A stretch of DNA of 64,000 nucleotides from an uncultured Bacteroides sp. (lineage in GTDB: Bacteria; Bacteroidota; Bacteroidia; Bacteroidales; GCA-2748055). The stretch covers positions 1,586 to 65,585 of the forward strand of contig CAYXUD010000080.1 in NCBI GenBank assembly GCA_964467775.1, in the 5' to 3' direction. The notes below the pieces were generated by a model. It made no database searches. It was not told the DNA's origin and worked only from the letters and a program-made list of their open reading frames with translations. This document shows positions 2,186-53,321 of this stretch, piece by piece (positions within the stretch are counted from its first letter, which is position 1; each line of letters starts with the position of its first letter). The translations under genes were made by a program, and so were the position numbers.

Positions 2186-3091
2186 TTACAACATTGAAAC
2201 AGGCAGGGATTGCAGGATCATTCCGGGACCTTCGATTTCAACCCTCAGGATTTCACCGTAATTTCCTTCAAAGAAGTCCAGCATAAAAGGGTATTTCCCC
2301 CTTTTCAGTTCAATTTTTCCCTTCGATATAAAAGGCCCGTGAATGCCATCGTTATCGACAACCATGGTATCATTTACAAACAAACGCGAGCCATCATCGC
2401 TTATGGTTGAAAACCGGTATGGTCCGTCCCCGGGTGAGATCTTGACAGCAGCCGAACTTATGTGGCTGTTTTTGGGAAATGAAACATTTTCGGATATAAA
2501 ATGATAGCTCCCGGAAGTAATTTCACAGCGAAGCACGCCATCCTTGAATCCAAGAAGTTTTACTCCCCCGGCCCTCGTAATTTTCCGGTTTCCTTCACGA
2601 ACATCTGATCTGCCATTTGCAGGGAGATTGATTTTCGCCGTTGTATTGACGGGAATTTCAATGTCCCATGTAAAATTGTTGTCTTCATCCAGTTCCCAGC
2701 TGCTGTAAATTTTACCATACGGTGAATGATGGCTTGCTGTTGCAGATCGCAACTCTTCCGTAACAATGGGCTTCATAAGGATCTCTTTAAAACCGGGTTC
2801 ACCCGGCTTGATCCCCCCGATATTTTCGTAAATCCAGATAATGAGGTCCCCCAGCAACATGGCGTGATTACCCGAGTTCATGGCAGGATCTGCCGTGTTC
2901 CCGTTCCATAATTCCCAGATCGTTGTGGCCCCGTTTTTTGCCATGTATCCCCAGCTTGGGTATTCAGTTTTGGTTGCAAAACGCAGGGCAATATCGGGAC
3001 GTCCATATGCTGTCAATACCCTCTGCAGGTACATGATCCCAATGAGTCCGACCATGATGTGCCCGTTTCCATCAGTTTCAATTTTTTCCAC
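2186..3091 (-). CDS. alpha-L-rhamnosidase (GH78), C-terminal fragment with PA14-like tail; separated from 3078..5348 by the repeat element
   Basis: 301-aa ORF. GNGHIMVGLIGIMYL, YPSWGYMAKNGATTIWELWNGN and GGIKPGEPGFKEILMKP are GH78 motifs. The tail YRFSTISDDGSRLFVNDTMVVDNDG...FFEGNYGEILRVEIEGPG resembles PA14. The GTG at 3091 is only the first start-like codon after the insertion. Confidence 0.8.
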   Translation of the reverse strand: MEKIETDGNGHIMVGLIGIMYLQRVLTAYGRPDIALRFATKTEYPSWGYMAKNGATTIWELWNGNTADPAMNSGNHAMLLGDLIIWIYENIGGIKPGEPGFKEILMKPIVTEELRSATASHHSPYGKIYSSWELDEDNNFTWDIEIPVNTTAKINLPANGRSDVREGNRKITRAGGVKLLGFKDGVLRCEITSGSYHFISENVSFPKNSHISSAAVKISPGDGPYRFSTISDDGSRLFVNDTMVVDNDGIHGPFISKGKIELKRGKYPFMLDFFEGNYGEILRVEIEGPGMILQSLPVSML

Positions 3092-5348
3092 GATATGATT
3101 GAATCCCGCTCGCGCAATCCCCGTAGCTTTGCTGCGGGGTAAGCGAGCACAAATAAAATAATTTATGGATCGAAGATTCCTCGGAGCTTGCTCCGAGGAG
3201 CTTCAATACTGCCTCCCGGTATTTCTCAGGTACCAGGTCAAAACCAAGCGACAACAGGTTGGCGGTGGGTGTATTGTTGCTGTAATAGTTCATCGATTCG
3301 ACAAAGTATTCCTTGTTGTAAGCCACCTTCATGGAATCAGCCAGTGCCTCAAACAGTGCTTCATCTTCCTGAAAACCAAGCAGATTGGCAAAGCGCTGCA
3401 TGATCCTGGCATCATGATAATAGAAAGCAGTTCCGATCAATGCACCACTCGTAATCCTGTCCGGATCGCTGCTGTGGATCATCGACATTTCTTCAGGAGG
3501 CATACACCAGTCACCATAGGTGTCGCGAGGCATCAGGAAACCGGTCATATACCTGTTTTGCATATAGTGCATCCATTTTTTCATGGCAGGATAATGTTCA
3601 TGAACGGCATCTATTCCTCCAAACTGGTCATACAGCATCTCGGCAACCATGATCCCGGTTCCATCCCAGGTCACATTGTCATTATATAATCTCCAGTATG
3701 CAGGGCTGACATCAGGAATACTTCCCTCCCCGGTCTGGTCATCGCGCATATCAGCGAGCCACTTGCGGTAGAGGTTATAATTGTTGAACATGTAACTCTC
3801 ACCCCGGCATCCCGTGGCCCTGTCACCCAACCAGCCCATGCGCTCGTCGCGCTGCGGACAGTCGGTTGGCATACTCCGGTAGTTTCCCCTGATACCCCAG
3901 ACGGCATTTTTATAGACCTGGTTGAGGAGATCACTGGCACAGTCGAAAGTGCCGTTTGTCCGTACGTCGTTATTCACGACGCAACCCAGGATTGTGTTCA
4001 GGTCTGGTTTGCCGGGATACCCTCTGACTTCAACATACCTGAAGCCATGATATGTAAATTTTGGAACCCAGGTTTCCGGTCCATCTCCTTTCAAAGTATA
4101 CATATCGGTAACCTTTGCACTCCTGATATTGTCGAGGTAGAGTGTTCCATCCTTTCTTAAAGTTTCCGCAAAGCGCATCACCACCCTGTCTCCCTGTTTA
4201 CCTTCAACCGACAACTTTACCCAGCCCACCATGTTTTGACCCAGGTCATAGATAAAAACACCCGGGCTCACCTCATTCACCGATACCGGCTTGATATAAC
4301 CCGTCACCCTGATGGGTTCGATCAGCGGTGCTGAAAGCTTTCCCGGGGGTGCCATGACCAGCTCAGCCTTCAACCAGTTTATCGGGGTGTATCCGGGTTT
4401 ATCCCATCCGTAGAGATCCTTCCGCGCATCGTATTTCTCTCCGTCGAATTCGCTGTTTTCCCTAATGGGGCCATTGGCGGTTACACTCCAATTTTCATCG
4501 GAAATAATAACTTCATTGCTGCCATCGCTGTATTCGATATTAATCTGCATGATAAGCTTTGGGAATCCGTAATGCTCCATCTTCATAGGAATGTTATTGC
4601 GCATGGCAAAATAACGTCCATTCCCGAGCACAATTCCAATGGCGTTCTGTCCAATCTCAATCATGGAGGTGACATCAAATGAATTGTAAAAAACCCTCTT
4701 ATTGTACTGGGTGGCATCGGGTGCCAGCACCATATCGCCTGTTTTTTCGCCATTCAGGTGCAGTTCGTACAATCCAAGGCCACTGATATGGGCAGTAGCA
4801 GATTTGACCTCTTTTAAAATTTCAAATTCCCTGCGGAAATAGCGGGCCGCCAGTTTGCGGAATTCCCCTTCAATATCATCTCCGGCAAATGATCTGTCCA
4901 GCCCTATCCATCTGCCCTTCCAATCCTCTTCATTCAGCAGTCCCATTGACCAATACGCCGTTTCAGACCATCCAGATTCAACATCATTTTTACTCCATAC
5001 CTTTACCTTCCAGAAACATGCCTGGCCTGATTTCAGCGGGACACCACTATATTTTATGTTGAGGGACTGGCAGGACTCTATTATTTTTGAATCCCAAAGG
5101 GTTCCATTGTCATTTTCGAGATCTTCGGAGGTGGCTGCAACCAAAACCCGGTATGCCGTTTGTTCTTCTCCCCTCTGTTCCGAAACGGATTGCCAGCTTA
5201 ACGAAGGTTGGAGTATATCAATACCAGAAGGGTTCAATCTGTTTTCACACAACAGATTTACGGGTGAAATTCCTCCGTTTGAATGAGGGTTCTTACTGCA
5301 GCTGAGTAAGATAAGCGTGAGCAGGAAAAGGATTTGAATTGGTTTCAT
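3078..5348 (-). CDS. alpha-L-rhamnosidase (GH78), N-terminal fragment; last ~41 codons are element-encoded or out of frame
   Basis: 756-aa ORF with a lipoprotein-like signal (MKPIQILFLLTLILLSCS). QPSLSWQ...AYRVLVA is the GH78 N-terminal domain pattern. It is contiguous in sequence logic with 2186..3091. The tail LKLLGASSEESSIHKLFYLCSLTPQQSYGDCASGIQ is a translation of the repeat. Confidence 0.85.
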   Translation of the reverse strand: MKPIQILFLLTLILLSCSKNPHSNGGISPVNLLCENRLNPSGIDILQPSLSWQSVSEQRGEEQTAYRVLVAATSEDLENDNGTLWDSKIIESCQSLNIKYSGVPLKSGQACFWKVKVWSKNDVESGWSETAYWSMGLLNEEDWKGRWIGLDRSFAGDDIEGEFRKLAARYFRREFEILKEVKSATAHISGLGLYELHLNGEKTGDMVLAPDATQYNKRVFYNSFDVTSMIEIGQNAIGIVLGNGRYFAMRNNIPMKMEHYGFPKLIMQINIEYSDGSNEVIISDENWSVTANGPIRENSEFDGEKYDARKDLYGWDKPGYTPINWLKAELVMAPPGKLSAPLIEPIRVTGYIKPVSVNEVSPGVFIYDLGQNMVGWVKLSVEGKQGDRVVMRFAETLRKDGTLYLDNIRSAKVTDMYTLKGDGPETWVPKFTYHGFRYVEVRGYPGKPDLNTILGCVVNNDVRTNGTFDCASDLLNQVYKNAVWGIRGNYRSMPTDCPQRDERMGWLGDRATGCRGESYMFNNYNLYRKWLADMRDDQTGEGSIPDVSPAYWRLYNDNVTWDGTGIMVAEMLYDQFGGIDAVHEHYPAMKKWMHYMQNRYMTGFLMPRDTYGDWCMPPEEMSMIHSSDPDRITSGALIGTAFYYHDARIMQRFANLLGFQEDEALFEALADSMKVAYNKEYFVESMNYYSNNTPTANLLSLGFDLVPEKYREAVLKLLGASSEESSIHKLFYLCSLTPQQSYGDCASGIQSYRGKN
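3098..3207 (+). mobile_element. 110-bp hairpin-rich repeat element (MITE/PATE-like), copy 1, inside the GH78 gene
   Basis: Sequence: attgaatcccgctcgcgcaatccccgtagctttgctgcggggtaagcgagcacaaataaaataatttatggatcgaagattcctcggagcttgctccgaggagcttcaat. It is 109/110 identical to 32944..33053. Termini are inverted (ATTGAA...TTCAAT). Hairpins lie at 3119..3139 and 3179..3198. Confidence 0.85.
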
Positions 5349-6908: not shown

Positions 6909-8276
6909 CTACTCAGATCGTCCGCCTGTACTCATGGGATCGCCTTTGTATCCCAGTTGTTCCCAGTTAAGTCTCTTTGATTCTTTCTTTGTATGGCAAT
7001 CTGTACATTTCAGTGATTTTTCGGCAGGAGCAACCATATGATTGATGGGCCAGTACATGGCTGTTTCCACAAAATTAAATTCACCCGAATAGGCCAAATG
7101 GCTGGCAGCCATTCCCAACGCTGAAGCGCTGTCCCAATCGTATGTTTTCCAGTAGCCATCTTCGCCGAACAATTTGGGAGTAATTAAATAGAGGTTTTGG
7201 GAATCGTAAATCTGTTTGCCACGCATCACCTTGAATGGGGTAATTTTGGCCTTCTCATCGCTGATATTTCCAGTGAGCCTGTTAAGCTCTACCACTTTTT
7301 CAGGATCAATCTTCTCTCCAAACTGGTAATAATCAGCTTGCCCATTGTGCCACCTGTACTCCGGGACCACATTTTTCTCCCAGATGAAATCACCCTTTTT
7401 CTTGTCGTAGAGCGGCATTCCGAATGCATCATTTTTAACGGTTTTGTCCTGTCCGGCAGAGGACCAGTCCCACCATGTCTTTGTGGGTTCCTGGCGGGCA
7501 AAGGAGGGGATATGACATGTTTCGCATGCCACGGATCTGATGTGATCATTCACTATCTTTTTGCCATGGGGTTTTTCATCGTGACAGTCCAGGCAGGCAA
7601 TGTGATTGGTTCCGGCAGCCAGTGAACCGTGACTTGCCCCAAGAATCCGGTGATTTTCTCCGGCGTGACAGTCGGAGCAGCTAAAACCAAGCTTACCCAT
7701 ATGAACGTCCAGGGCTGGCGAAGGATTCAGCATGCTTCCATCCATATCCCCATGTTTCACCCCGGTTCCACCACCACCATTGAAATGACAAACGCTGCAG
7801 TTACGGATGGTGGTTCTTCCCACACTCTGCGCCACTTTAATCAGATCGACCGAAGGATCGGGCATGCCTGCTCCTGTGGGCACCTTTTTATAGGTTCCGG
7901 TCTGTTCGTGACAAATCAGACAATCAATGTTGTTTCCGTCTGTAAAGTCAAATGTCTCATCTTTCCAGCCAAAACCAATATGGCAACTCGTGCAACGGGC
8001 CCAATTTGAGACTAAGGAGATGCAATAGTTATTGATGATGTTTTGCTTTCCCACCCTCAATGTGTCCCCCTCCTTATTGACAAATTCATCACCCAACCAG
8101 TTCCAGTGCCTGGTTTTCATGATATCCTTGTCAATGCCATCATGGCAAAGCAGACATGTTTCCGTAACTTCCTGAGGGGTGGTAAAAGGACCATCAATTA
8201 ATTCCGAATGGTCTTCCTGCGCAAACATGGGGATTACAAATAGCAGTACGAATAGAATTGTAGTCGGAGTTTTCAT
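6909..8276 (-). CDS. octaheme c-type cytochrome, tetrathionate-reductase (Otr) family-like
   Basis: 455 aa with a signal peptide and eight CxxCH motifs: CLLCH, CTSCH, CLICH, CSVCH, CSDCH, CLDCH, CETCH, CTDCH. Size and heme count fit the Otr octaheme family. Confidence 0.7.
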   Translation of the reverse strand: MKTPTTILFVLLFVIPMFAQEDHSELIDGPFTTPQEVTETCLLCHDGIDKDIMKTRHWNWLGDEFVNKEGDTLRVGKQNIINNYCISLVSNWARCTSCHIGFGWKDETFDFTDGNNIDCLICHEQTGTYKKVPTGAGMPDPSVDLIKVAQSVGRTTIRNCSVCHFNGGGGTGVKHGDMDGSMLNPSPALDVHMGKLGFSCSDCHAGENHRILGASHGSLAAGTNHIACLDCHDEKPHGKKIVNDHIRSVACETCHIPSFARQEPTKTWWDWSSAGQDKTVKNDAFGMPLYDKKKGDFIWEKNVVPEYRWHNGQADYYQFGEKIDPEKVVELNRLTGNISDEKAKITPFKVMRGKQIYDSQNLYLITPKLFGEDGYWKTYDWDSASALGMAASHLAYSGEFNFVETAMYWPINHMVAPAEKSLKCTDCHTKKESKRLNWEQLGYKGDPMSTGGRSE

Positions 8277-8466
8277 CTCTTTTATGTAACCTAAATGTGT
8301 ATCATTTTAGCGATATTACTTGAAACTGCCCTTCCGGAATATCTGAGCAATTATAAGGAAGTAAATCCAATTAAATATAGGCAGAATATACAATTTAAAA
8401 GAATATGAAATCCACAATCGAGAAGAATCATCCAGTCCTGAGGAGGATGCAATTACGATCGAGGAT

Positions 8467-8763
8467 TTATCGTTTGATCATGCGTGATTCAATCTCTTTG
8501 ATATGATCAACCAGAAACGGGGAATCAATTCCCGATACTGCCTTAATCCATGTCTTTAGCCTGAGGTTTTGTTCATATACCTTCTGACAGCTGCGCTTTT
8601 CCTCTTCGTCTGTTATTGTATTGTTATTGTTATATATGGATTTTAAATTCTCCAGCAAACGGTCCTTCTCCCGGCACCATTCGGAGTTGCGTTCATCGCA
8701 ATTACACTTTGCTTCATCAATCCACTGGAACAATCCCTCCGGGATATAGATTCTGTGCTTCAT
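8467..8763 (-). CDS. hypothetical protein (98 aa)
   Basis: ORF track only; no recognisable motif. Lies in an AT-rich context. Confidence 0.3.
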   Translation of the reverse strand: MKHRIYIPEGLFQWIDEAKCNCDERNSEWCREKDRLLENLKSIYNNNNTITDEEEKRSCQKVYEQNLRLKTWIKAVSGIDSPFLVDHIKEIESRMIKR

Positions 8764-9111
8764 ATAATTACTTGATTTTAAAATCTTATACTGATTTCCA
8801 ACATGTTTGGTACTGAGAAAAAGTACCTTTTTTCGTTGTGATGATCGCGGAATATAGCCTCCTCCAGTTTTTCGAATTCAATGAATTTCTTGTACACCAC
8901 ATGACTGTGGTCATCTGAACCATTTTTGTCTTTCAGAGAATCAATCCCAGCTCTTTGCAATTCAAAGATAGGCAATAAAACCAACAGTTGGGGATGCAAT
9001 CAGGGTAAAAATGGCCAGTATCCCAGACATGCAATAGATAGCAACAGGAATGAAATAGAGATGGACGAAAATATTCTCATTATTTTTGTTGCATAATACC
9101 TACAGAGCTCA

Positions 9112-9707
9112 ATGAAAAAAGAAAAAATTTATCCTGATTCAGAAGTCGAGCTAAATCCATCATCCAGGCCATCAAGGATATGCATATCCAGCCAAATGAC
9201 CATATTCTCGATCTGGGATGAGGGACCGGGCACAATACCAATTTAATGGCTTCCTATTTAAACGAAATGGGAACTATCCTTGGTTTGGATATTTCTGAGG
9301 AGATGGCTCTTCAGTTCCAAGCCCGGTTTTCTGAGGATAGTCGCATCAGATTTCAACCTCAGCGTGTTGATCTTCCATTTCAATTAGATAAGAAATTTGA
9401 TTAGGTATTTATAGGGTTTGTGATCCACGGATTTCCACATAATGTTCGTCATTCTGTGATTGAGAACGCATATAACCATCTTGAAGCAGGCGGAGCATTC
9501 TATATACTCGATTATGTTGAATTTGATTTGAATTCTATACCATTCCACCATCGCGCAATCTTCAAAGCAATCGAATGTAAATATGCTTTCGATTATATCG
9601 GGCATGAATGAGAATCCATTTTAAAGGAAAAAGGATTAAATGAATTCACCGAGCATTTTTATCTAAAAAACTACGTGAGGTTGCTGAAAGCAGTAAAACA
9701 GAACTGA
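9112..9707 (+). pseudogene. class I SAM-dependent methyltransferase, decayed (three in-frame stops plus an N-terminal frameshift)
   Basis: One frame reads ...IIQAIKDMHIQPNDHILDLG*GTGHNTNLMASYLNEMGTILGLDISEEMA...DKKFD*VFIGFVIHGFPHN...LEAGGAFYILDY...YIGHE*ESILKEKGLNEF...KQN*. In-frame stops are TGA 9219, TAG 9402 and TGA 9609. The LDLGxGTG motif I is interrupted. The only upstream ATG (9112) is in another frame. Confidence 0.75.
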
Positions 9708-9720
9708 TGGAACACTACCC

Positions 9721-10575
9721 TTATTTTACTGTTCCTCGTTTGACTACAAAATCGCCGGTCTGTGTGCCTGTTTTTTCTGCTATCAGATCACACTTGGTGA
9801 CAAACAGAAAATAGACATGATCATGGGGCACATCGATCAATCCCTCCAGGTTACCCTGACCTTTGGAAATAACTACATCTGCATTTATAAAATGATCTTT
9901 AAAATCCTTGGAAGAAGACTCCCACACGGCCCCAGGGGAGTCATCCCCTGTGGTAATCACGGTAGCTATATTATCTATGCCTGTCATCTGTGCATCATCA
10001 AGCGTAACATCATTTATCACAGGACTTTCCCGGACCACAAAATACTTCTGAGGTACATTAATTGACTCTAAGAATAGCTTGTCCAGAACAATCTCCCCGC
10101 AGTTGTCACCAATATAGAGCAGGGTGTCTGCATGTTTCAGGTCATGACGCAGTTCCGGGGAATGATCAATAGCCAGTTCATGGTTCATCACCTGGTTGAT
10201 CTTGGACTTTATATCAAACTGGTATTTCGCTCCAAAATCGATCACATTTCCTGCAATGGCAAGACGGATGGCTGTATCAAATGAATCGTCTGAACTGTCC
10301 ACCATTTCCTTAAAAGAAGGGTACAATTCCAGCATCATGTGGTTATATTTCTGCTTAAGTTGATGATAGGGATCAGGGTTTTGCAAAGAGGCACGAATCA
10401 TTCTCTGTAACGTTCGCCCCAGCATGGGCGGGGATTGATCGTAATTACTCCGGGACAAATATTTTAACAATTGACGTAAAATAATTTCCTGCCGAGGCTG
10501 GGGTATGACATCTGTTTCAATCAGTCTCAGATAGTTGTTAATAATGCAGGGTATACACTCAAATTGAGTCTTCAT
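9721..10575 (-). CDS. DUF89 / ARMT1-like damage-control phosphatase family protein
   Basis: 284 aa. N-terminal CIPC, IGDNCGEIVLDKLF and ISKGQGNLEG match the conserved DUF89 (PF01937) motifs. Confidence 0.75.
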   Translation of the reverse strand: MKTQFECIPCIINNYLRLIETDVIPQPRQEIILRQLLKYLSRSNYDQSPPMLGRTLQRMIRASLQNPDPYHQLKQKYNHMMLELYPSFKEMVDSSDDSFDTAIRLAIAGNVIDFGAKYQFDIKSKINQVMNHELAIDHSPELRHDLKHADTLLYIGDNCGEIVLDKLFLESINVPQKYFVVRESPVINDVTLDDAQMTGIDNIATVITTGDDSPGAVWESSSKDFKDHFINADVVISKGQGNLEGLIDVPHDHVYFLFVTKCDLIAEKTGTQTGDFVVKRGTVK

Positions 10576-10585
10576 GTATGCGTTA

Positions 10586-11800
10586 CTATTTTTTACAGTT
10601 CAGTTTGTAAATAAAAAAAAGCGAGAGCAGAATAATAGACACAAACAAAATAAAAAATAACAGATATCCAGACCGCTCAATGATCCATCCTCCCAGTAAT
10701 GGGAATAGGGCCGGGATAATATTCCCTGTTCCTGCAATCCCGGTATACAAGGTCCTGTTCTCTGTACCCGATATCTCCAGTAATACCCCATTCATGGAAA
10801 TACTATACATTGAAAAGATTACGCCTCCTGCTAAAAAAATAAGCGTGAATGGGGGCACACCAGGTGATAACAAGAGGATCAGGGGGACTGATACAACTAA
10901 AAATACATTACCGTAAAGCAAATAACGATATTTGAACTTTTTATTGATCAGAAAAAGGATAAAACCTATGACAACACTTCCTATTACTTTATAAAGGAGA
11001 AACAAACCGGTGTCATGACTTTGGGTATGATGCACCTCCTTGGCATACAGCATAATAAAAGGTAAAAGGGTAATGCTGATTCCCATGGTATTGATGAATC
11101 CAAGAAAATATACCAACTTGTTATTATGGGCTAATTCAGCTTTGATTAAAGAGAGGAAATGACGGGGATTTTTTACAATCATTCTTGAAGACTTGTGTTC
11201 TTTCAGTTTCCAGAATCCGATTGATGCGATCAGAAGAGCCAGAAAGCCGATCATAAACATGGTTGCATAGTTAACAGGATAGTCATTAAGTGTAATCACT
11301 TTTTTGGCAAGCAAAGCAGAAAAGAAGAGTACTACCCCCCCAACAACCTGTTTAATTGAAAAAAATGATTTTCTCAAAGATTGATCCACTGATTTACCAA
11401 TAATATCGGTATAGCTAACATTGGCAAAAGCACCACCAAGTGAAAAGAATGTGATAAGCAAAAATATCAACCAGATCGTGTGGCTGCCTGTGACTGAGAA
11501 ATAGAGCATGATACTCATGAACAGCAGTGAAATGATCCTGGCATTAATGCCCATCAGCAGGAATTTCTTCTTATAAGGTCGATTGCTAATAAATGGAGCA
11601 AATATTAATTGAGTAAAACTGGAACCACCCAGCATGATGGCAGTCATCAAACCAATGTGAAATCCATTCCCGCCAGCCTCCACAATCATGGCGGGGATAA
11701 CCGTATCAACATCCATAAAATTTTGGGCCAGTGCCAGAAAAGAAGCATGCCAGAGGAAGGAATGATAATTATGTCTGGATATACTTGGAGTGAGCTTCAA
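10586..11800 (-). CDS. MFS transporter
   Basis: 404 aa, about 12 hydrophobic segments, two-halves architecture with a central basic loop (KEHKSSRMIVKNPRH). Confidence 0.75.
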   Translation of the reverse strand: MKLTPSISRHNYHSFLWHASFLALAQNFMDVDTVIPAMIVEAGGNGFHIGLMTAIMLGGSSFTQLIFAPFISNRPYKKKFLLMGINARIISLLFMSIMLYFSVTGSHTIWLIFLLITFFSLGGAFANVSYTDIIGKSVDQSLRKSFFSIKQVVGGVVLFFSALLAKKVITLNDYPVNYATMFMIGFLALLIASIGFWKLKEHKSSRMIVKNPRHFLSLIKAELAHNNKLVYFLGFINTMGISITLLPFIMLYAKEVHHTQSHDTGLFLLYKVIGSVVIGFILFLINKKFKYRYLLYGNVFLVVSVPLILLLSPGVPPFTLIFLAGGVIFSMYSISMNGVLLEISGTENRTLYTGIAGTGNIIPALFPLLGGWIIERSGYLLFFILFVSIILLSLFFIYKLNCKK

Positions 11801-11809
11801 AGTACAGTA

Positions 11810-12116
11810 TTAATCATATAGTAATCTGGTTTTTTCGTTGGCCAGGATTGGATTAATTAAACCTGAAAGGTCCAGAGATTCCCACGTTCCAAGTTTGGTA
11901 TGTATGGCATAGTATTTTTGCGGGATTGGATGGGATCGAACGATTGCTTTCATACCATATTTTTCCCGAATCAGATCCTGAAAATGCCTGATATTCATCT
12001 GTTGTGCAGATATCAAACGTGGCCTCCCTATTATGAAGGGCTCGGAAACATTTACCTCCACCACAGTAGCGATAACGGTCACAAATAATGATTCCGATCT
12101 TAGTTATTGTCGTCAT
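11810..12116 (-). pseudogene. CGGC-domain-like small protein, probably degenerate (two overlapping frames)
   Basis: Frame 1 (11853..12116) starts MTTITKIGIIICDRYRYCGGGKCFRALHNRE, which resembles the CGGC-domain N-terminus. Frame 2 (11810..12082) ends ...DLIREKYGMKAIVRSHP, which resembles the domain C-terminus. The central CGGC motif is missing. Confidence 0.3.
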
Positions 12117-12126
12117 GTCTTGAAAC

Positions 12127-12504
12127 TTAATTACTCTGCTTTACTTCAAACATATTACCGCTATGATCCGAGATAAATATCAGATCGGAATTGTGTCTTT
12201 TTAAGCGAATACACTTATATGAATGTTGAGTTGCTCTCTTAACAATTTCTTCCCTATGGGAGGTCGAAATGCATATATGATTAAAGCCATGATGATGTTG
12301 TTCCGGCGTCAAAAATATTTCCAGTAACAGTTTATCTTTTTGCAACAGAAAGATTTTCGTTTCTTCCTCAATACCAAAAATATTCCTGGCAAGATCCTTA
12401 TCAAGAATAAAACTTCTTATCTCAATCATTCCTAAAATTTCATGATAGAACTGTTTGATCTCATTATAGTCCGTAATAGTCAACGCAATATGTTCTAATT
12501 TCAT
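12127..12504 (-). CDS. VOC (glyoxalase/bleomycin-resistance/dioxygenase) family protein
   Basis: MKLEHIALTITDYNEIKQFYHEILGM...HHGFNHICI...DHSGNMFEV shows the typical VOC beta-alpha-beta-beta-beta pattern. Start chosen at ATG 12504, directly after the upstream stop (12506-12508). Confidence 0.65.
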   Translation of the reverse strand: MKLEHIALTITDYNEIKQFYHEILGMIEIRSFILDKDLARNIFGIEEETKIFLLQKDKLLLEIFLTPEQHHHGFNHICISTSHREEIVKRATQHSYKCIRLKRHNSDLIFISDHSGNMFEVKQSN

Positions 12505-12505
12505 T

Positions 12506-14365
12506 TTATAATTCTTTTGCAAGTTCGTATGCCCCATGAATTGCATCCTGGGCGTTACCGGGATGCCTGGCATCACCGATCACATAAACTGGCAATTTGC
12601 CCGTGAGCTCTTTTTCAAGGGGATTATAACTTTTCATGCCAGCTGAAACAACAACAACATCTATGTTTTCAAATTGGATTTTTTCTCCATCTTTTTCCGC
12701 GAAAACCGTTTTGTCTTCAATTCTCTTTATAGAAGTATGATCACTAAAAATTGTCCCCTTTTCCTCCATTATTTTTAAGGATAAATTCTTTGCAATCATT
12801 TCCATATCCTCTCCAAAATCCGTGGTTCTTTTGACTATAATAACCTGGTTATCCAATGGAATTAATGCTGTGGCTATATCAACCCCAATAAGGCCGCCCC
12901 CAATGATCAATACTCTTTTGTTTCTTGGAAGATTCTTTTCCAAAAGTATTTCTGCACCATAGAATTTATCCATTCCCGGAATTTTAAGTACTGCCGGTTT
13001 AGAACCTGTTGCTAATATCAGACCATCATATTTAGATATAATATCTGATATTGTAGCCTCTTTGAAAATTACGCTTATATCATTATTTATTAGCTCCTCA
13101 ATAAAATATGGCACCAACAGTGCCATTGATTTTTTATGTGGAGTTAAAGGTGCTAAATTGAATTGCCCGCCTAATTTATCTTTTTCATAAAGGTCAACTG
13201 TATGTCCGCGTTTCCTCAGGATAATGGCAGCCTCCATACCTGCCAATCCACCACCAACAACTGCAAATTTTTTAGGATGCCTTGTTTTTCTTATAATATC
13301 TGACTCCTTACCAACTTCAGGATTTACAAGGCATTGAAGTCCATGACCCGATTTAACTCCGCCCAGACAACCTTCTGCACAGGCCAGACAGGGTGCTATA
13401 TTGCGTCCTACCGTTCCAAGATATTTCCCTGTGAAATCCGGGTCGGCAATTAAAGATCGTCCAATAGCAAGATATTCTGCTTTGTGTTCATTAAACAGCG
13501 CATCTATGTCATCTTTTGTATTGATCCTTCCAACGTAAATCACCGGTATATCAATTTCTCTGCGGATGGTATCTGCAAAATCCCATGTTTTTCCTTTCGA
13601 AACAAACATGTGCTGAAAGAACCATGGGGGTGTTGTACAAACAGATCCGGCGGAGACGTGAATGGCTGCTGCTCCATTCTTCTCCATAATTCGTGCAAAA
13701 TGAATCATTTCATCGATATGAAAACCTTTAGGGGTCATTTCATCTCCGCTGATTCGTATAATTACCGGGATATCAACAGCACTTATTACGGCCTGGACCA
13801 CCTCCAGTGGAAATCGGTATCTGTTTTCAAAGTCTCCTCCATATTCATCCGTACGATTGTTGACCTGAGGTGATAAAAATTGAGCTAACAAATAACCATG
13901 TCCAAGTTGAAGTTCGATCAAATCAAAACCTGAAATAACAACCCTCCTGGCTGCATCTTTGAAAAGTTGAATGACCCTGTTCATCATTCTCCTGTCCATT
14001 TTTTCAGGCACAGCTCCTCCATTTTCGCAAGCCCGGGTAGTTGATGACCAGAAGTAATTTTCGGGTATCATCGGATTGGCCATTCTCCCCGGATGGTTTA
14101 AATGGGCAATGGCTTTGGCTCCATGCCGATGAATGATGTCTGTAAGCTTACGAATACCTTCAATTTTATCATCATTATCAATACCCAGTTGGGTTGGTAA
14201 CTCCCTCAAACCCTCATCTATATAAAAAGGTTCGGGGATCATGGCTCCGATATTCTGGTTTCTCCGGTTGTAAAATTGCAGATGCCTGTCAGTTACCACT
14301 CCCGTCCCATCACTGTAGCCAAGCTTGACTGGAGCTAAAATGAATCTATTTTTTAATTCTATCAT
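12506..14365 (-). CDS. NADH:flavin oxidoreductase (Old Yellow Enzyme domain) fused to an FAD/NAD(P)-binding domain (2,4-dienoyl-CoA reductase-like)
   Basis: 619 aa. The OYE TIM-barrel part carries HLNHPGR, ELQLGHGYLLAQFLSP and a Cys cluster (CLACAEGC). This is followed by a Rossmann GxGxxG (VVGGGLAGMEAA) and a second IIGGGLIGVD. Confidence 0.8.
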   Translation of the reverse strand: MIELKNRFILAPVKLGYSDGTGVVTDRHLQFYNRRNQNIGAMIPEPFYIDEGLRELPTQLGIDNDDKIEGIRKLTDIIHRHGAKAIAHLNHPGRMANPMIPENYFWSSTTRACENGGAVPEKMDRRMMNRVIQLFKDAARRVVISGFDLIELQLGHGYLLAQFLSPQVNNRTDEYGGDFENRYRFPLEVVQAVISAVDIPVIIRISGDEMTPKGFHIDEMIHFARIMEKNGAAAIHVSAGSVCTTPPWFFQHMFVSKGKTWDFADTIRREIDIPVIYVGRINTKDDIDALFNEHKAEYLAIGRSLIADPDFTGKYLGTVGRNIAPCLACAEGCLGGVKSGHGLQCLVNPEVGKESDIIRKTRHPKKFAVVGGGLAGMEAAIILRKRGHTVDLYEKDKLGGQFNLAPLTPHKKSMALLVPYFIEELINNDISVIFKEATISDIISKYDGLILATGSKPAVLKIPGMDKFYGAEILLEKNLPRNKRVLIIGGGLIGVDIATALIPLDNQVIIVKRTTDFGEDMEMIAKNLSLKIMEEKGTIFSDHTSIKRIEDKTVFAEKDGEKIQFENIDVVVVSAGMKSYNPLEKELTGKLPVYVIGDARHPGNAQDAIHGAYELAKEL

Positions 14366-14484
14366 CCTGCAATTGTTTTTTATAATCTCATTACATATCC
14401 TGCTAATCCGACTATAAAAGCAACAATGCTTTCTAAGGAAGCCAATGTACTCGCAGTATTTAAATGAAAATCAAGCAATAAGAA

Positions 14485-14712
14485 CTATGTCTTATCCTTG
14501 ACCATCTCTTCCCTGATCATGGTATGTCCACATTCGGGACATTTTAGGGTAGTGCATTTTACCCCTCTCCTGTGTGGAATTTTTTCGCCACACTTTGTGC
14601 AAATACAAAACCCACCTGTTCCATAAGAACCACCTTTATTCCGGCCTTGCCCTGTACCAGGGCCGGATCCTTTATCCTGGCCCATATGCATACCTTTTCC
14701 AGATTTGTTCAT
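14485..14712 (-). CDS. small Gly-rich zinc-ribbon protein
   Basis: 75 aa with a Gly-rich N-terminus and two CxxC pairs (CTKCG...CPECG). Confidence 0.5.
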   Translation of the reverse strand: MNKSGKGMHMGQDKGSGPGTGQGRNKGGSYGTGGFCICTKCGEKIPHRRGVKCTTLKCPECGHTMIREEMVKDKT

Positions 14713-14783
14713 AATATCTGAATTTTATTACTTACCCAAAAGAAACAGGCTATTGTTAGCGCAACCTATATCTTTTGTTTCAA

Positions 14784-15089
14784 TTACTTCTTTTCGGTGT
14801 TTGAGAGCCGATCTTCAAGTGCGGACAACTTGTCTTTGAGAATCCTGATCTCGTTTTCAATTAAAGTCTTTTCAGATACATCAGTGACATTTCCATGGTA
14901 ATAATTTCCATAGCCATACCTGACCCCCCCACCATAACCAGGGCCACCATGAAATCGCCTTCTATATCCTCTTCCCCAATTCGATTGCGAGGTCATATAA
15001 CCAGGTTGATCATTGCCCGTACAATATCCCATCCCTCTTCCTGTTTTAGGTCCTTCACCCGATGGACCTGTTCTGTCACCTCTTGGCAT
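14784..15089 (-). CDS. DUF5320 domain protein
   Basis: 101 aa. MPRGDRTGPSGEGPKTGRGMGYCTG with a Gly/Tyr-rich middle and a C-terminal coiled coil (ENEIRILKDKLSALEDRL) is the characteristic DUF5320 layout. Confidence 0.7.
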   Translation of the reverse strand: MPRGDRTGPSGEGPKTGRGMGYCTGNDQPGYMTSQSNWGRGYRRRFHGGPGYGGGVRYGYGNYYHGNVTDVSEKTLIENEIRILKDKLSALEDRLSNTEKK

Positions 15090-15113
15090 AATTACCTCCT
15101 TTTTTATGATGTG

Positions 15114-15545: not shown

Positions 15546-15664
15546 AATGTATATATTATTACAAATATAATGCACATATGTGCATTATACAAATTATTTT
15601 CCTTAGTTTTGAACAACAGTTTTCATATGATAACAATATATGTAACCCTATAAAATATGACAGT

Positions 15665-29524: not shown

Positions 29525-29794
29525 CTATTCTATAATCTTCAAGATTTCACCGGGAATAACTTTTCCATTCGGGATGGTTAAATGACCCTCGCAGCTGTTA
29601 TTTTGAAGGTTCAGATCATTGCTGTCCGTTATTTCTATTTCAGCAGTTATCCTGAAGCTTCCATGGGACGCCTTCCAGTTTTTCCCGTGTATGCCCTGGG
29701 CACAGGCCAGTTCCATGCCCCCGACCGGGATTGCTAAAGATCTTGAATTACGCGAGCGCAGTCCCCGAAGTTCTACTTCGGGGTAAGCGAGCAC
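29525..29794 (-). CDS. C-terminal remainder of the GH3 protein (second half of a CARDB-like beta-sandwich); first ~17 codons are element-encoded
   Basis: MLAYPEVELRGLRSRN is a translation of the repeat. SRSLAIPVGGMELACAQGIHGKNWKASHGSFRITAEIEITDSNDLNLQNNS continues the domain begun by ...IIRFYVDGKEVAWYH at the end of 29950..32250. Confidence 0.65.
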   Translation of the reverse strand: MLAYPEVELRGLRSRNSRSLAIPVGGMELACAQGIHGKNWKASHGSFRITAEIEITDSNDLNLQNNSCEGHLTIPNGKVIPGEILKIIE

Positions 29795-29851
29795 AAATAA
29801 AATAAGAAATTAATCGATGATTCCTCGCAGCTTGCTGCGAGGAGAGTCAAT
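29742..29851 (+). mobile_element. repeat element, diverged unit V (first unit of a tandem dimer)
   Basis: Sequence: cttgaattacgcgagcgcagtccccgaagttctacttcggggtaagcgagcacaaataaaataagaaattaatcgatgattcctcgcagcttgctgcgaggagagtcaat. It has the same length as the canonical unit and aligns to it without gaps. Both hairpins are retained through paired substitutions. Confidence 0.8.
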
Positions 29852-29954
29852 CCCGCTCGCGCATTCCCCGTAGCTTTGCTGCGGGGTAAGCGAGCACAAA
29901 TAAAATAATTTATGGATCGAAGATTCCTCGGAGCTTGCTCCGAGGAGCTTCAAT
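29852..29954 (+). mobile_element. repeat element, canonical unit C (second unit of the dimer; shares the junction 7-mer with unit V)
   Basis: 103 nt identical to 32951..33053. It follows GTCAAT of unit V directly, without its own left ATTGAAT. Confidence 0.85.
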
Positions 29955-32250
29955 GATACCATGCCACTTCTTTCCCATCCACATAAAAACGGATAATATG
30001 CGAATCGCCCATATTCGAAGTTGCTGTTCCGTTGTTGATAAGTGAAGCCATCAATATGACTTCTTCTCCATCCTTGGGAAAAGCAGGAATGGAACGAATA
30101 TTTTTCACTGAAAGGTCCGCTTTGCCTTCTGCCCCAGTCATGTTAAATCCAGCTTTCAGGGTCAGGTTGTCCGAAGACCCACCCACCCGCACAATGAATT
30201 CACCGGCCGGAACTTGGTAAGATCTCTTTACTTCATTGTATATGTACAACTCTTCGGGAGAAAGGGTGAATACAATCTTTTTAGTTTCACCCGGATGTAG
30301 AAAGACTTTCTCAAAACCACGTAATTGTTTTTCGGGCATCTGAAGATCAGGGGTAATTTTCCCGGTTGACAGATATAACTGCGCCACCTCTTCGCCGGCA
30401 ACTTTTCCTGTATTTTCGAGGTCGAATGAAACTTCAATGATTTCTCCCACCCTGGCGTCTGCCCTGTTCACCTCAATATTCGAATATTGAAAAGTGGTGT
30501 AACTCAATCCAAATCCAAAAGCAAATTCAGGTTCCAGATCTTGCGAATCGAACCAGCGATATCCTACGCCTCTGCTTACCATGTGACGAAAATCAGAACT
30601 AATGGGGATTATCTGCCCGTCATTTTTAGGAATCGTAGCCGGCAGTTTTCCCGAAGGGTTGTAATTGCCGAACAGAACATCGGCAATGGCACGCCCGCTT
30701 TCCTGTCCCGGATAGAACGCATAGAATAGTGCCTTCACATTGGTTATGACCTGGGTTACACTGCAGGGTCCTCCCGAAATCACTACCAGAATTATATTTG
30801 GATTTACCTTTGCTATTTCATTGATCAACTCATTCTGAATCCCGGGAAGAAGAACTGTCCCTGATTGCCTGTCAGGGCGGGTAACCAATCCACCTCCTTT
30901 CTGATCAGCCTCTTTGTCAAAGAAGTATCCCTCTCCTTCCACAGTACTGTCAAGCCCGGCCACAAAGATTACATATTCTGAATTTGCCGCAGCTTCCAGT
31001 GCTGCCCTGAATTGTGATTTATCCTGGTCATTGATGTTGCAACCTTTTGCATAGGATACATGCGTTTTGCCAAGTATGGATGTAACAGCCGTTTCAACGG
31101 ATATGCGATATGAGGGTAGTACCTGTGAACTGCTGCTCCCATCCAGTGGCAAATGTGCGGCATTGGGACCAATCACCGCTATCTGCGTCAGCTTTTCCTT
31201 ATCAAGAGGTAAAATGTTTCCATTGTTCTTCAGTAGCACAAGACTTATCAAACCACTCTCGTACACCAGTTTACGGTGTGCCTCGCAGTCGATCACACTT
31301 GTGGGAACCTCCGGTACACCATCTATCATCCCGGATATGATCTTTGTCCGAAGCACATTCCTTGTTGCTCTTTCAACCAGTGCGCTGTCGAACCTGCCCT
31401 CCCTCACTCCGACTGGCAGTTCATTGATATACAAATCGTTGCCTTCGCAGAAATCCAGTTCAGCACTCAGGGCTTTTCCTGTTTCACTGAAACCGCCCCA
31501 GTCGCACATGGTGTAATAGTCAAAACCCCATAGGTCGCGCAGCAGCTCTTTTATCAGGTACTTGTTTTCGGCACATTTATCGCCATTCACCCGGTTGTAG
31601 GCACACATGATTGAAAATGCTCCTCCAATCTGTATGGTTCTTTTCCAATGATATCCCCAGAATTCAACCAGGCTACGCTCATCGCTCAGGTAATTGTTGG
31701 TCCTTCTGTTCATTTCATAGGTGTTCAGATTATAGTGTTTCACAGAACCAAACACAGAAGTAGTATTTTGCCCGAGCACAAAGGCTTCAGAGATCCTGCC
31801 ACCCAAAAAAGGATCTTCCCCGATGGTCTCGGGAGCGCGGCCAGTACGCGGATCAATAAGTAGATCGAGTGTGGGTCCGGCAATACGGTCTCTGCCCCGT
31901 GAAGCCTGCTCCATGGAAATGGCCCTGCCCACCCGTGTGATCAGGGCAGGATCCCAGGTGGCCGCCATGGCGATGGTTACAGGAAAGCATGAGAATCCGT
32001 AGGCTCCGTTTCCTATACCGTGCGGGCCATCGCTCCCGGTAAATTGAGGAATTCCCAAACGTGGGGTTCCATCGGTGAGGTAATACAACTGTTCAATCTT
32101 CTCCTGCATGGTCATCCCGGACAGAAGGGTATCGAGCCTTTTTTCCAGTGCACTTTCAGTTTCAGTAGGCATCGAAGAACATTGAATTACCAGAAAACCC
32201 GACAATCCAATCAACGGGAAGAACAAAATGTGGGACACTATTTTTTTCAT
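29950..32250 (-). CDS. GH3 beta-glucosidase-type glycoside hydrolase, truncated in its C-terminal CARDB-like domain by the repeat dimer
   Basis: Signal MKKIVSHILFFPLIGLSGF (ATG 32250, overlapping the upstream stop as TAATG). GSDGPHGI, KHYNLN, MCDWGG and a Fn3-like domain are GH3 features. The ORF stops at a TGA formed inside the element terminus (..tat cat TGA agc). Confidence 0.85.
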   Translation of the reverse strand: MKKIVSHILFFPLIGLSGFLVIQCSSMPTETESALEKRLDTLLSGMTMQEKIEQLYYLTDGTPRLGIPQFTGSDGPHGIGNGAYGFSCFPVTIAMAATWDPALITRVGRAISMEQASRGRDRIAGPTLDLLIDPRTGRAPETIGEDPFLGGRISEAFVLGQNTTSVFGSVKHYNLNTYEMNRRTNNYLSDERSLVEFWGYHWKRTIQIGGAFSIMCAYNRVNGDKCAENKYLIKELLRDLWGFDYYTMCDWGGFSETGKALSAELDFCEGNDLYINELPVGVREGRFDSALVERATRNVLRTKIISGMIDGVPEVPTSVIDCEAHRKLVYESGLISLVLLKNNGNILPLDKEKLTQIAVIGPNAAHLPLDGSSSSQVLPSYRISVETAVTSILGKTHVSYAKGCNINDQDKSQFRAALEAAANSEYVIFVAGLDSTVEGEGYFFDKEADQKGGGLVTRPDRQSGTVLLPGIQNELINEIAKVNPNIILVVISGGPCSVTQVITNVKALFYAFYPGQESGRAIADVLFGNYNPSGKLPATIPKNDGQIIPISSDFRHMVSRGVGYRWFDSQDLEPEFAFGFGLSYTTFQYSNIEVNRADARVGEIIEVSFDLENTGKVAGEEVAQLYLSTGKITPDLQMPEKQLRGFEKVFLHPGETKKIVFTLSPEELYIYNEVKRSYQVPAGEFIVRVGGSSDNLTLKAGFNMTGAEGKADLSVKNIRSIPAFPKDGEEVILMASLINNGTATSNMGDSHIIRFYVDGKEVAWYH

Positions 32251-32996
32251 TACAGGCAGGTTACTCCGTATAGCATATAGCCGGTATCGTTCATGGCCGA
32301 TATCAAATCGATGGATCTGATTTCTACATCGGGCCTGGGATTTTCCCATGTATAACGGTATAATTTCAACACAAAACCCAGGTCTTTTACCCTGGGATTT
32401 GAACCCTCCCATGCCAGTTCAGCTCTGGGTGGAAATACTGAATTCTTCGGATGGAACCACCAATCTTCAACCTCGATCCGGCTTCTGATGGTGATGGTTT
32501 TTTTCCGGTTATCTGCATAATTGACCACAATGCGGACAACTTCTGTCCCTGTTTCACTCTCCCAGGCTGATGAATGCAAGAAGCATAATTCATCAGCCAT
32601 GTGATGAACAGGTATGCCGGAAATTTCCTTCGGATAATTGATGTGGGACATTTCGAGGGAAACCTTGCTGGCCAGCTGGATAATGCCACGGGCATCGAAA
32701 TTCACACCGTTAAAATCATTGATTCCAGAAGGAATGGGTATGGTATTGCCTGGTTTGCCATGAATCTCTTCACTCAAAGAAAAATTATAATAAGGCTCCA
32801 GATCAACATATCTGCCATCGTCAGGGAATTGCCGCGGGACAATGGCGCGCAATGGTTTTGTTCTTATTTGCATCATTTCTTTTTTTGATTGGACCGGAGG
32901 CAACTCCTTATCGAAATCGTCGCTGGTATAGGTTATTTTAGTAATTGAATCCCGCTCGCGCATTCCCCGTAGCTTTGCTGCGGGGTAAGCGAGCAC
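32250..32996 (-). CDS. C-terminal accessory domain of the interrupted GH-A hydrolase (unassigned beta-rich domain); first 17 codons are element-encoded
   Basis: MLAYPAAKLRGMRERD is element-derived. The host part is SITKITYTSDDFDKELPP...VNFDARGIIQLAS...LCFLHSSAW...VNYADNRKKTITIRSRIEVEDWWF...WENPRPDVEIRSIDLIS. The frame joins 33049..33957 if 103 nt are removed. Confidence 0.6.
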   Translation of the reverse strand: MLAYPAAKLRGMRERDSITKITYTSDDFDKELPPVQSKKEMMQIRTKPLRAIVPRQFPDDGRYVDLEPYYNFSLSEEIHGKPGNTIPIPSGINDFNGVNFDARGIIQLASKVSLEMSHINYPKEISGIPVHHMADELCFLHSSAWESETGTEVVRIVVNYADNRKKTITIRSRIEVEDWWFHPKNSVFPPRAELAWEGSNPRVKDLGFVLKLYRYTWENPRPDVEIRSIDLISAMNDTGYMLYGVTCL

Positions 32997-33053
32997 AAAT
33001 AAAATAATTTATGGATCGAAGATTCCTCGGAGCTTGCTCCGAGGAGCTTCAAT
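32944..33053 (+). mobile_element. 110-bp repeat element, copy in the GH-A gene
   Basis: 109/110 identical to 3098..3207. Hairpins at 32965..32985 and 33025..33044. Termini ATTGAA...TTCAAT. Confidence 0.85.
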
Positions 33054-33957
33054 CTCCCGTGAAAATAAGTACCTGTGTGGTACGTGGCCCAATGATGTCG
33101 TGGTATACCTCATCGCGCTGCCCCTGAACCACAAAAATTAATCCAGGTCCGCTTTCGCCCGCATCATCCAGATATAAAGTATATTCCCCGGGATCGCCAA
33201 AGCCCCTGTTCATCATCATGACGCTGAGTCGGTCGCCATCCTGTGCGCCATAAACCAGGAAATCATCATTGGAAACTGTCCCCTTCAGGAAGGTGCCTGT
33301 AAAATATTTTGCCACAAACTCCATGTGCCGGTATGATGCCCTGGGGGTCATGTGGGCTCCGTCGATCAGGCTGAAATCGGATTCTTTGCGGTCGCCTCCA
33401 TGTTCAAACATGCTCCAGCAGGCGGCATAGGCAGCTTCGTACTCCATGCACCAGCCCAGTACCGCCCCGAACATTTGTCCGTTCCCCCACGTGTGCACCT
33501 TGGGGCCTCCCTTGGAGTTGTACTCTCCAATTCCCCAGATCAGCGCATCAGCGCCGGTACGATTGTGCAATGCATTCACCTGGTCTGTTTTAGCTTTTGA
33601 TTTCACGATGCGTTCCAGGAAATCGTTGGCTCCTTCAATGGCCGGGTCGCCGTCACCCTGGGGATAACGGTGCCAAGACAGACCGTCGCAATAATAATAA
33701 TCTTTGTCCGGGACTTTGATCGCGATATCGTTTTTCCCTCCAAACAGGTCATCGAAAGGCACATCGAAATAATCGCAGAAATCGGGACCATAAATCTTTA
33801 TGGTGGGATCCACCGCCTTCATGGCGGCAGCAATGGGTTTGAAATAGCCTTCGACAAACTCCCCCATGGTTGAAAGGGGCGGACGGTTGGCCTGCAACCA
33901 GGGTTCGTTACCAATGTTCCAGTATTTAACCGGCGATACACCCTCATGTTTCTCCAC
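33049..33957 (-). CDS. clan GH-A (TIM-barrel) glycoside hydrolase, central fragment (family not assigned)
   Basis: VKYWNIGNEPW (NEP acid/base motif). Paralogous along its length to 34298..35620. It stops at the TGA in the element terminus (gga gat TGA). The apparent GTG start follows a frameshift. Confidence 0.75.
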   Translation of the reverse strand: MEKHEGVSPVKYWNIGNEPWLQANRPPLSTMGEFVEGYFKPIAAAMKAVDPTIKIYGPDFCDYFDVPFDDLFGGKNDIAIKVPDKDYYYCDGLSWHRYPQGDGDPAIEGANDFLERIVKSKAKTDQVNALHNRTGADALIWGIGEYNSKGGPKVHTWGNGQMFGAVLGWCMEYEAAYAACWSMFEHGGDRKESDFSLIDGAHMTPRASYRHMEFVAKYFTGTFLKGTVSNDDFLVYGAQDGDRLSVMMMNRGFGDPGEYTLYLDDAGESGPGLIFVVQGQRDEVYHDIIGPRTTQVLIFTGD

Positions 33958-34301
33958 GTTAAAAACCGGACCAGTTCGGCGACAGCTTCAGCAGGTTGGT
34001 ATTGGGAAACCTGCAGAATGGGTACAGCTCCTACAGCCTGGATTTTTTGAACCCAATCCAACAGTGTTTCCTTCGATGGCAGGTTCTTGTCATACGCATG
34101 GCCTCCAATCCGGATGGTTTTCATTCCGCACTCCATGGTAAGGTTCCATGCCTGCTCGCCCGGATCATTGTACCATACATTGGTGCCAACCAGCAGTGGG
34201 CTGATCTGTTGCGCAATGGAATCAGTGGCAAGGAAAATAAATATCCCGGCTATGAGTTTAGAAGCACAGGTTTTCATGATGGATTGTATTGAAGATTTCA
34301 T
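33819..34301 (-). CDS. N-terminal fragment of the same GH-A hydrolase (signal peptide plus first ~113 codons real, remainder out of frame)
   Basis: MKSSIQSIMKTCASKLIAGIFIFLATDSIAQQISPLLVGTNVW...IRIGGHAYD...ILQVSQYQPAEAVAELV parallels QEISPWLFGQNHW...VRIGGNGYE...ILQVPRKFSAEEVTGLV of the paralog. Frame is lost at the A5/T5 run 33961..33965. The start overlaps the upstream stop (ATGA). Confidence 0.7.
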   Translation of the reverse strand: MKSSIQSIMKTCASKLIAGIFIFLATDSIAQQISPLLVGTNVWYNDPGEQAWNLTMECGMKTIRIGGHAYDKNLPSKETLLDWVQKIQAVGAVPILQVSQYQPAEAVAELVRFLTWRNMRVYRRLNTGTLVTNPGCRPTVRPFQPWGSLSKAISNPLLPP

Positions 34302-48431: not shown

Positions 48432-48529
48432 GTTGTTGTGGTTTGATGATGGCTAATATAGTGATAATAGATGCTGGATATCTGCCAATGCATTAATTTT
48501 GTGTCCTTGGACATTCAATCATTTGAAGC

Positions 48530-49462: not shown

Positions 49463-49491
49463 CCGTATTGTATCATATTCCGGGATCAATT

Positions 49492-50310: not shown

Positions 50311-50314
50311 TGCC

Positions 50315-51361: not shown

Positions 51362-51401
51362 ATGGTTCATTCAATCATCAATCATACAAAAAACCGGTTT
51401 C

Positions 51402-53312: not shown

Positions 53313-53321
53313 GATTCCCTG

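Follow-up and report, generated by a model that had tools for sequence, protein, structure and literature searches.

A 103-nt hairpin element interrupts a GH78 rhamnosidase gene in an uncultured Bacteroides sp.

A GH78 gene broken within its catalytic domain

We analyzed a 64,000-nt stretch of DNA from an uncultured Bacteroides sp. (contig CAYXUD010000080.1 of assembly GCA_964467775.1, positions 1,586 to 65,585 of the forward strand; hereafter the window), in which the gene for a glycoside hydrolase family 78 (GH78) alpha-L-rhamnosidase is split between two open reading frames (ORFs) by a repeated element of 103 nt. It is near certain that insertion of this element knocked out the gene. The responsible agent is probably a non-autonomous mobile element of the IS200/IS605 type, similar to the palindrome-associated transposable elements (PATEs).

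As an earlier note on this DNA had described, GH78 sequence is found on the minus strand in two ORFs of different frame, 3078..5348 and 2186..3091. The first encodes 714 GH78 residues followed by 42 unrelated residues and a stop codon (...LVPEKYREAV, then LKLLGASSEESSIHKLFYLCSLTPQQSYGDCASGIQSYRGKN and the stop), and GH78 sequence resumes in the second. The note regarded the peptide beyond the break as element-encoded; this is true of most of it, but the last two residues (IQ) come from the retained target ATTCAA, and the stop codon lies six codons after GIQ, not five codons after the peptide as the note had it. In silico removal of 3105..3207 (103 nt) restored the frame as predicted, giving a single 1019-aa ORF that reads ...YREAVFNHIVEKIETDGNGH... 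across the junction. The repaired protein has one contiguous match to Pfam Bac_rhamnosid6H (residues 465-809, profile positions 3-339 of 339), and the break, at residue 714/715, falls inside this catalytic domain, about 70% of the way along, where the note had also placed it. Only in the repaired protein are the Pfam Ig_Rha78A_N, Bac_rhamnosid_N, Bac_rhamnosid, 6H and C domains all present; as encoded, the gene is split.

The upstream part of the gene (3208..5348, minus strand; identified by ORF, Pfam, orthologue and PDB evidence) carries residues 1-714, comprising a signal peptide, Ig, N and concanavalin-like domains, and the first ~250 residues of the six-hairpin catalytic domain. The downstream part (2186..3104, minus strand; ORF, Pfam and orthologue evidence) is out of frame with it and carries residues 715-1019, comprising the remainder of the catalytic domain with its TIWELW segment, the C-terminal domain and a truncated PA14 domain. 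The catalytic region matched the solved GH78 enzymes 6I60, 3W5M and 6GSZ in the PDB. We take the DERMGW region on the acid side to lie upstream of the break and the TIWELW region, with the general-base glutamate, to lie downstream. The final third of the (alpha/alpha)6 catalytic barrel is missing from the encoded product, which, being truncated within the barrel, should be inactive. Judged from its reading frames, the gene as it stands cannot encode an intact GH78 enzyme, and the downstream 301-aa ORF (2186..3091) has no independent support.

Thousands of GH78 proteins align to the repaired protein from end to end. The closest orthologue, P0001, is an intact protein of 1153 aa with 92% amino acid identity, and it aligned without a gap across the REAV/FNH junction (...REAVFNHIIEKIETDGNGH... 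/ ...PEKHREAVFNHIIEKIETDGNGH...). Its DNA contig, L001, is 94% identical in nucleotides and aligned to the window in two pieces, 5420-3202 and 3104-2419, which overlap by six bases only, ATTCAA. Because L001 matches both flanks with just these six bases common to both pieces, it represents the empty site: GCAGT-ATTCAA-TCAT in L001 corresponds to GCAGT-ATTGAAGC...GCGGG-ATTCAA-TCAT in the window, and the flank-to-flank sequence without the insert is ...GCAGT joined to ATTCAATCAT. Thus, the orthologue alignment that the note had proposed did locate an empty site, which lacks exactly the 103-nt segment and has ATTCAA once. The net gain in the window is exactly 103 nt, between codons V714 and F715; the insert has ATT at either side, and its boundaries are therefore ambiguous by 3 nt. 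Orthologues free of the insert have one GH78 gene, not two, indicating that the window contains a single split gene and not a pair of naturally separate ones.

The GH78 gene has also lost 393 nt in frame relative to L001. The deletion junction (2419..2435, minus strand) was identified by alignment and is spanned by short-read contigs of two metagenomes (X3 and X7). The loss amounts to 131 codons, corresponding to the Fn3_assoc/CHB_HEX_C_1 region and part of PA14, and is flanked by the short imperfect direct repeats ACCCGGGGAC / ACCCCGTGAC. The possibility that the gene is an old, decaying pseudogene was considered and rejected. The ratio of nonsynonymous to synonymous substitution rates (dN/dS) against L001 was 0.23, not above the 0.33 of a neighbouring gene, and no excess relaxation was detectable; the insertion is thus a recent one when set against the 14% synonymous divergence.

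Copies in the window, the population and other genomes

The note had called the inserted segment a repeat, and its halves indeed occur four and three times in the window against about zero expected. A covariance model run with filters off found four copies of the element in the window, all on the minus strand, and no others. Copy 1 (3105..3207), recognized as a window repeat and by the covariance model and missing exactly from L001, is the one in the GH78 gene; it reads ATTGAAGCTCC...GCGAGCGGG on the minus strand and CCCGCTCGCG...GGAGCTTCAAT on the plus strand. The remaining three were assigned by the covariance model. Copy 2a (29852..29954), of the same subfamily as copy 1, lies in a GH3 beta-glucosidase gene, within the part for its CARDB-like C-terminal domain, and copy 2b (29749..29851), of a diverged subfamily with compensated stems, is set head to tail against it. 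Copy 3 (32951..33053), whose filled junctions were found in contigs of the metagenomes X1-X3, lies inside a GH44-like gene.

Removal of these copies repaired the other two genes as well. Taking out 2a and 2b together (206 nt) restored the CARDB-like C-terminus of the GH3 protein, with a junction (EVAWYH/SRSLAIPVGG) that is gapless against orthologues. Copy 3 divides the GH44-like gene into ORFs 33049-33957 and 32250-32996; without it, ORFs 33957..33049 and 32996..32250 fuse, the orthologue P0121 matches with 81% identity and 100% coverage, and the junction LIFTGD/SITKI is likewise gapless. The codon phase of entry differs among the three insertions. The GH44-like gene also carries a 1-nt frameshift, a minus-strand run of T5 at 33961-33965 where orthologues need T6, which separates ORFs 34301..33819 and 33957..33049. 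Since short-read contigs of three metagenomes match the window at this position, the frameshift is not an assembly error. Hence, two of the three interrupted genes bear a further real lesion, the 393-nt deletion in GH78 and the frameshift in the GH44-like gene, both confirmed by short-read contigs.

The sequence is present in salt-marsh and marsh metagenomes of 2019 and 2025, and contigs of eight of these runs could be placed on the GH78 site. In all eight, independent short-read contigs run from a unique flank, on one side or the other, 17-27 nt into the element, so that the junction, which the note had flagged as a possible assembly artefact, is real, and the filled allele is a genuine, assembled allele in every metagenome examined. 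Word depth was 400-550 in the element and 3-7 in the unique flanks. A depth about 100 times that of the flanks corresponds to roughly a hundred copies, indicating that about 100 near-identical copies exist in the salt-marsh Bacteroidota population. The excised alleles that the note had envisaged were not seen: no contig of the eight metagenomes joins the GH78 flanks without the element, although contigs drop rare variants. No RNA runs holding this sequence were found.

An exact 27-mer scan of GTDB genomes gave no match, indicating that the source species is not represented there. The metagenome scan and two informative genome scans together provided a family of at least about 36 independent full copies among the matches listed, which occur in the source population and in many metagenome-assembled genomes (MAGs) of Bacteroidales and other Bacteroidota. 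The ORF context of the listed copies was scored after computational removal of each copy, counting long ORFs, in which 66% of random positions lie. In the young, near-identical subfamily, seven of nine copies are in long ORFs (six sense, one antisense), about the random rate; its sense excess of 6:1 is not significant (two-sided p about 0.13). Older subfamilies are mostly intergenic, with 7 of 27 copies in long ORFs (two sense, five antisense). Such depletion is the mark of insertions removed by purifying selection, not of introns that are tolerated; the young subfamily is consistent with a recent burst, still to be purged by selection. Long ORFs spanning the insertion site occur in both orientations relative to the element, being antisense in L020, L013, L014, L034 and others.

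Ends, target and hairpins of the element

The element has a fixed neighbouring motif and defined ends. In minus-strand orientation, copies begin with ATTGA after a variable base, and ATTCA stands just past the other end in nearly all of the ~36 listed copies, followed by a variable base that is mostly A. Read on the plus strand, the element lies 3' of TGAAT, which abuts nearly all of these copies (exceptions are GGAAT in two and TGAAC in one), and its own end is TCAAT. At the GH78 site the retained target (3099..3104; plus strand TTGAAT, minus strand ATTCAA) is present once in the empty site of L001, and its TGAAT (3100-3104) is directly 5' of the proposed left end of the element. The two ends, ATTGAAGCTCC... 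and ...GCGAGCGGG(ATTCA), are not reverse complements in any register, which means that terminal inverted repeats are absent.

Two strictly conserved blocks, CGAGGAATC[A/T]TCGAT and GTGCTCGCTTACCCCG, alternate with two hairpins. On the plus strand the layout is TGAAT, then CCCGCTCGCGC-ATTC-(CCCGTAGC TTT GCTGCGGG)-GTAAGCGAGCAC ... GAAG-ATTC-(CTCGGAGC TT GCTCCGAG)-GAGCTTCAAT. Hairpin 1 (3169..3207, minus strand), the proposed right-end hairpin in plus-strand terms, has an outer stem ATTGA/TCGAT and an inner stem CTCGGAGC/GCTCCGAG; read on the plus strand, it comes after ATTC, and the next 10 nt end in TCAAT. Hairpin 2 (3107..3149, minus strand), the proposed left-end hairpin, has an outer stem GCTCGC/GCGAGC and an inner stem CCCCGCAGC/GCTACGGGG. 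A single copy of the element folds with z = -4.3. The stems are also supported by compensatory changes among 18 family members: two pairs of hairpin 1 vary as GC:8 / CG:8 / AU:1 and AU:12 / GC:5 / CG:1, and pairs 80/90 and 83/87 of hairpin 2 covary, with changes such as CG:11 / UA:6. The ATTC that precedes each hairpin on the plus strand is invariant at the right end and present in 12 of 18 members at the left end, and, as a candidate guide, it is complementary to GAAT of the target.

Several observations on the family stand apart from the GH78 insertion. Small extra hairpin modules are present at fixed positions in L007 (740-759), L008, L027, L029, L049, L050, L052, L055, L073, L079, L104 and others; one is a ~20-nt module, CCTTTAGC(T/C)CG(A/G)CG(A/G)AG(T/C)CA, after GAGGAA, and another a ~26-nt module, CCGAGCCTGCGAGCTCGGCGGAGCCA, after CGGGGAA. 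The family is thus modular. A clear member (ATTGAAGCTCTCCGCGGCAAGCTGCGGAGAATCTTCGAT...GTGCTCGCTTACCCCG...GGATTCAAG) is found at 3780-3900 of L121, in a MAG labelled 'delta proteobacterium'; either the family has spread horizontally outside Bacteroidota or the MAG was binned wrongly. Solitary matches to the motif, such as that at window position 60482, were set aside as chance.

The element itself is a target of another transposon. An insertion sequence (IS) of the IS110 family occurs at one fixed point in hairpin 2, after GCAAAGCTAC and before GGGGAATGCG, in L007 (817-2128), in L019 (minus strand, about 3830-2515, with the rest of the 103-nt element directly following) and also in L009 and L016, in at least three element variants. 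This IS encodes a 339-aa DEDD-type transposase beginning MDQFTKKKYFIGIDISKD and has a non-coding leader of ~270 nt. The fixed point of these insertions indicates that the 103-nt element serves as a landing pad, as repetitive extragenic palindromic (REP) sequences do for IS621/IS1111-type elements.

Mode of movement, rival explanations and meaning

The layout of the element suggests how it may have moved. IS200/IS605 elements excise without a scar (PMC3201880, PMC10055086), and their protein-free derivatives are the PATEs (PMC3119063, PMC10055086). In Bacteroidetes, a phylum-specific Y1 subclass (subclass 2.6 of the REP-associated tyrosine transposases, RAYTs) has genes flanked by atypical hairpins, with further copies of these hairpins elsewhere in the genome (PMC6006769). 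A Y1 HUH transposase, either TnpA_IS200 or a RAYT-like enzyme of Bacteroidota, would have moved the 103-nt element in trans by single-stranded 'peel-and-paste'; in this route TGAAT would act as the transposon-adjacent motif and be retained at the left flank. From the arrangement of ends, hairpins and target, we consider this Y1 route reasonably likely. A second element could then land at the surviving left-flank target, and such retention would explain the abutting tandem pair in the GH3 gene, with nothing between the two units.

Comparison with IS608 (PMC3201880, PMC5934647) revealed both likenesses and differences. Both elements have two similar subterminal hairpins with a tetranucleotide 5' of each foot, and in both the right hairpin foot is 10 nt from the cut. 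Between left cut and inner hairpin foot lie 19 nt in IS608 and 15 nt in the 103-nt element, the left-flank motifs are TTAC and TGAAT, respectively, and the end motifs TCAA and TCAAT. Unlike in IS608, the left cut of the element is only 2-3 nt from an outer stem. Like PATEs, for which IS608 and ISDra2 are the paradigm, the element has no inverted terminal repeats, no protein gene and a high copy number, and would be expected to excise without a scar. Unlike that of typical PATEs, its length lies at the lowest end of the size range, and it is too short for an omega-RNA.

Several results weigh against assignment to the IS200/IS605 type. No Y1 transposase and no autonomous copy came to light in the 64 kb when about 45 ORFs were analyzed with Pfam, motif scans for IS200-type and RAYT-type Y1 enzymes were empty in ~150 fetched loci, and a 16-mer genome scan gave, among the matches listed, only mini-elements, a truncated half-copy (L080) and chance matches; neither a cognate TnpA nor a cognate TnpB emerged. 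With ATT on both sides of the insert, a target duplication of 0-3 bp is indistinguishable from none. The tetranucleotide beside hairpin 2 differs in 6 of 18 family members with the target unchanged, which weakens a simple Watson-Crick reading of it as a guide; in IS608, too, guide-target pairing is not simply Watson-Crick. The reading of ATTC as a guide is only suggestive. Finally, most window genes are on the minus strand and GC skew is confounded by gene orientation; if minus is the leading strand, the proposed active strand would be opposite to the lagging-template preference of IS608.

A classical DDE-type MITE (miniature inverted-repeat transposable element) would also disrupt the gene, with a strong preference for ATTCA sites, duplication of a 3-bp target (ATT) and imprecise excision. 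With ATT on both sides of the copies, an element of 100 nt with a 3-bp duplication fits the comparison of filled and empty sites equally well, and a tandem pair could arise in this way too. However, the ends that remain when ATT is left out, GAAGCTCC... and ...GCGAGCGGG, lack terminal inverted repeats and carry different subterminal hairpins instead of a transposase-binding inverted repeat, and in copy L044 the left side is ATT but the right side GTT. We therefore regard such a MITE as unlikely.

Somewhat more doubtful is a REP-like or REPIN-like domesticated repeat (REPIN, an inverted REP doublet), spread and maintained by a RAYT (TnpA_REP) and not derived from an IS. Like REPs, the element is an abundant short hairpin repeat with a conserved tetranucleotide at the foot, is probably handled by a Y1 HUH enzyme, and has a hairpin targeted by an IS110-family element, as REPs are by IS110/IS1111 elements; the link of RAYT subclass 2.6 to atypical hairpins (PMC6006769) points the same way. 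By contrast, the foot motif is ATTC/GAAT, with no GT[AG]G (GTAG) or CGTC tag, and no RAYT gene adjoined any copy in the motif scan of fetched loci. REPINs are inverted doublets and extragenic, whereas here the left and right ends are defined and asymmetric, the 5-nt target is fixed and young copies are inside genes.

The family might instead work as a reversible switch of glycan-degradation genes: a Bacteroidota-wide hairpin transposon whose structure selection maintains, whose young copies favour the sense strand, and whose effect is undone by scarless Y1 excision or tolerated at the RNA level. If so, cells would toggle glycan-degradation genes on and off within the population. We consider this improbable. 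A sense skew such as 6:1 would also arise from a strand-specific single-stranded DNA transposon combined with a strand bias of genes.

Still less credible is an intron-like or bypassed insert, with the rhamnosidase made after removal from the mRNA or by ribosome skipping. The three insertions of the window are all sense, as are six of seven in-ORF copies of the young subfamily, the RNA fold would be stable, and the insert is exact, so that its removal would give a perfect protein. In this it resembles self-splicing introns and IStrons, which interrupt a coding sequence exactly and restore the ORF when removed. Unlike them, the element has no ribozyme core, is, at 103 nt, much smaller than any known self-splicing intron, and also occurs antisense (L020, L013, L014, L034 and others) and between genes. 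Nothing in the whole window matched Rfam at the gathering threshold, and the element itself gave only noise at E<=10. The differing codon phases, the further real lesions in the interrupted genes and the lack of significance of the 6:1 ratio likewise argue against it. Palindromic repeats of ~100-150 nt inside protein-coding genes are also known as Rickettsia palindromic elements, which insert in frame and are translated within a still-functional protein; the 103-nt element (1 mod 3) differs in that it shifts the frame and truncates the protein. An artefact of assembly or sequencing that placed a repeat in the gene has next to no probability: repeats commonly cause misassembly and the Logan contigs do break at the element, but those of all eight runs enter it for 17-27 nt from unique flanks, and the same was seen for copy 3 (X1-X3).

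Among these explanations, the IS200/IS605-type element bears on whether the GH78 gene could recover. The note held the enzyme to be dead unless the element is removed at the DNA or RNA level. That an intact enzyme cannot be encoded at present agrees with our analysis, and removal from RNA found no support; removal from DNA is plausible for the class, although none was observed in contigs of the eight metagenomes. For IS200/IS605 elements, restoration of an interrupted gene by scarless excision has been demonstrated (PMC10055086). By analogy, scarless reversion of the GH78 gene at the DNA level is possible in principle, and conceivable if a transposase is present.

Elsewhere in the window, G+C content is 0.39 at 8001-16000 and 0.54-0.56 at 48001-64000; the low-G+C part holds ordinary genes, for an MFS transporter, an ARMT1-like phosphatase and an old-yellow-enzyme-type oxidoreductase. 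At 48530-50310, a short-chain dehydrogenase ORF (310 aa, matching only positions 1-142 of the 195-position Pfam profile) overlaps a same-strand ORF of no family (49417-50310), and this may be another frameshifted gene.

For annotation, our results mean that each of three 'split' glycoside hydrolase genes in the window is one gene interrupted by this element and should be read as a pseudogene or insertion allele, not as a gene pair. Inactivation of genes by small non-autonomous transposons is a well-known principle. The element family appears to be undescribed, as searches of the literature yielded no account of it. It is very compact, occurs in many Bacteroidales and other Bacteroidota MAGs, and is marked by a clean TGAAT/TCAAT signature; in a recent burst, one of its subfamilies reached about 100 copies and landed mostly in genes. 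Should the transposase of the family be found, scarless excision and the reactivation of genes in environmental Bacteroidota could be studied conveniently in this natural system.

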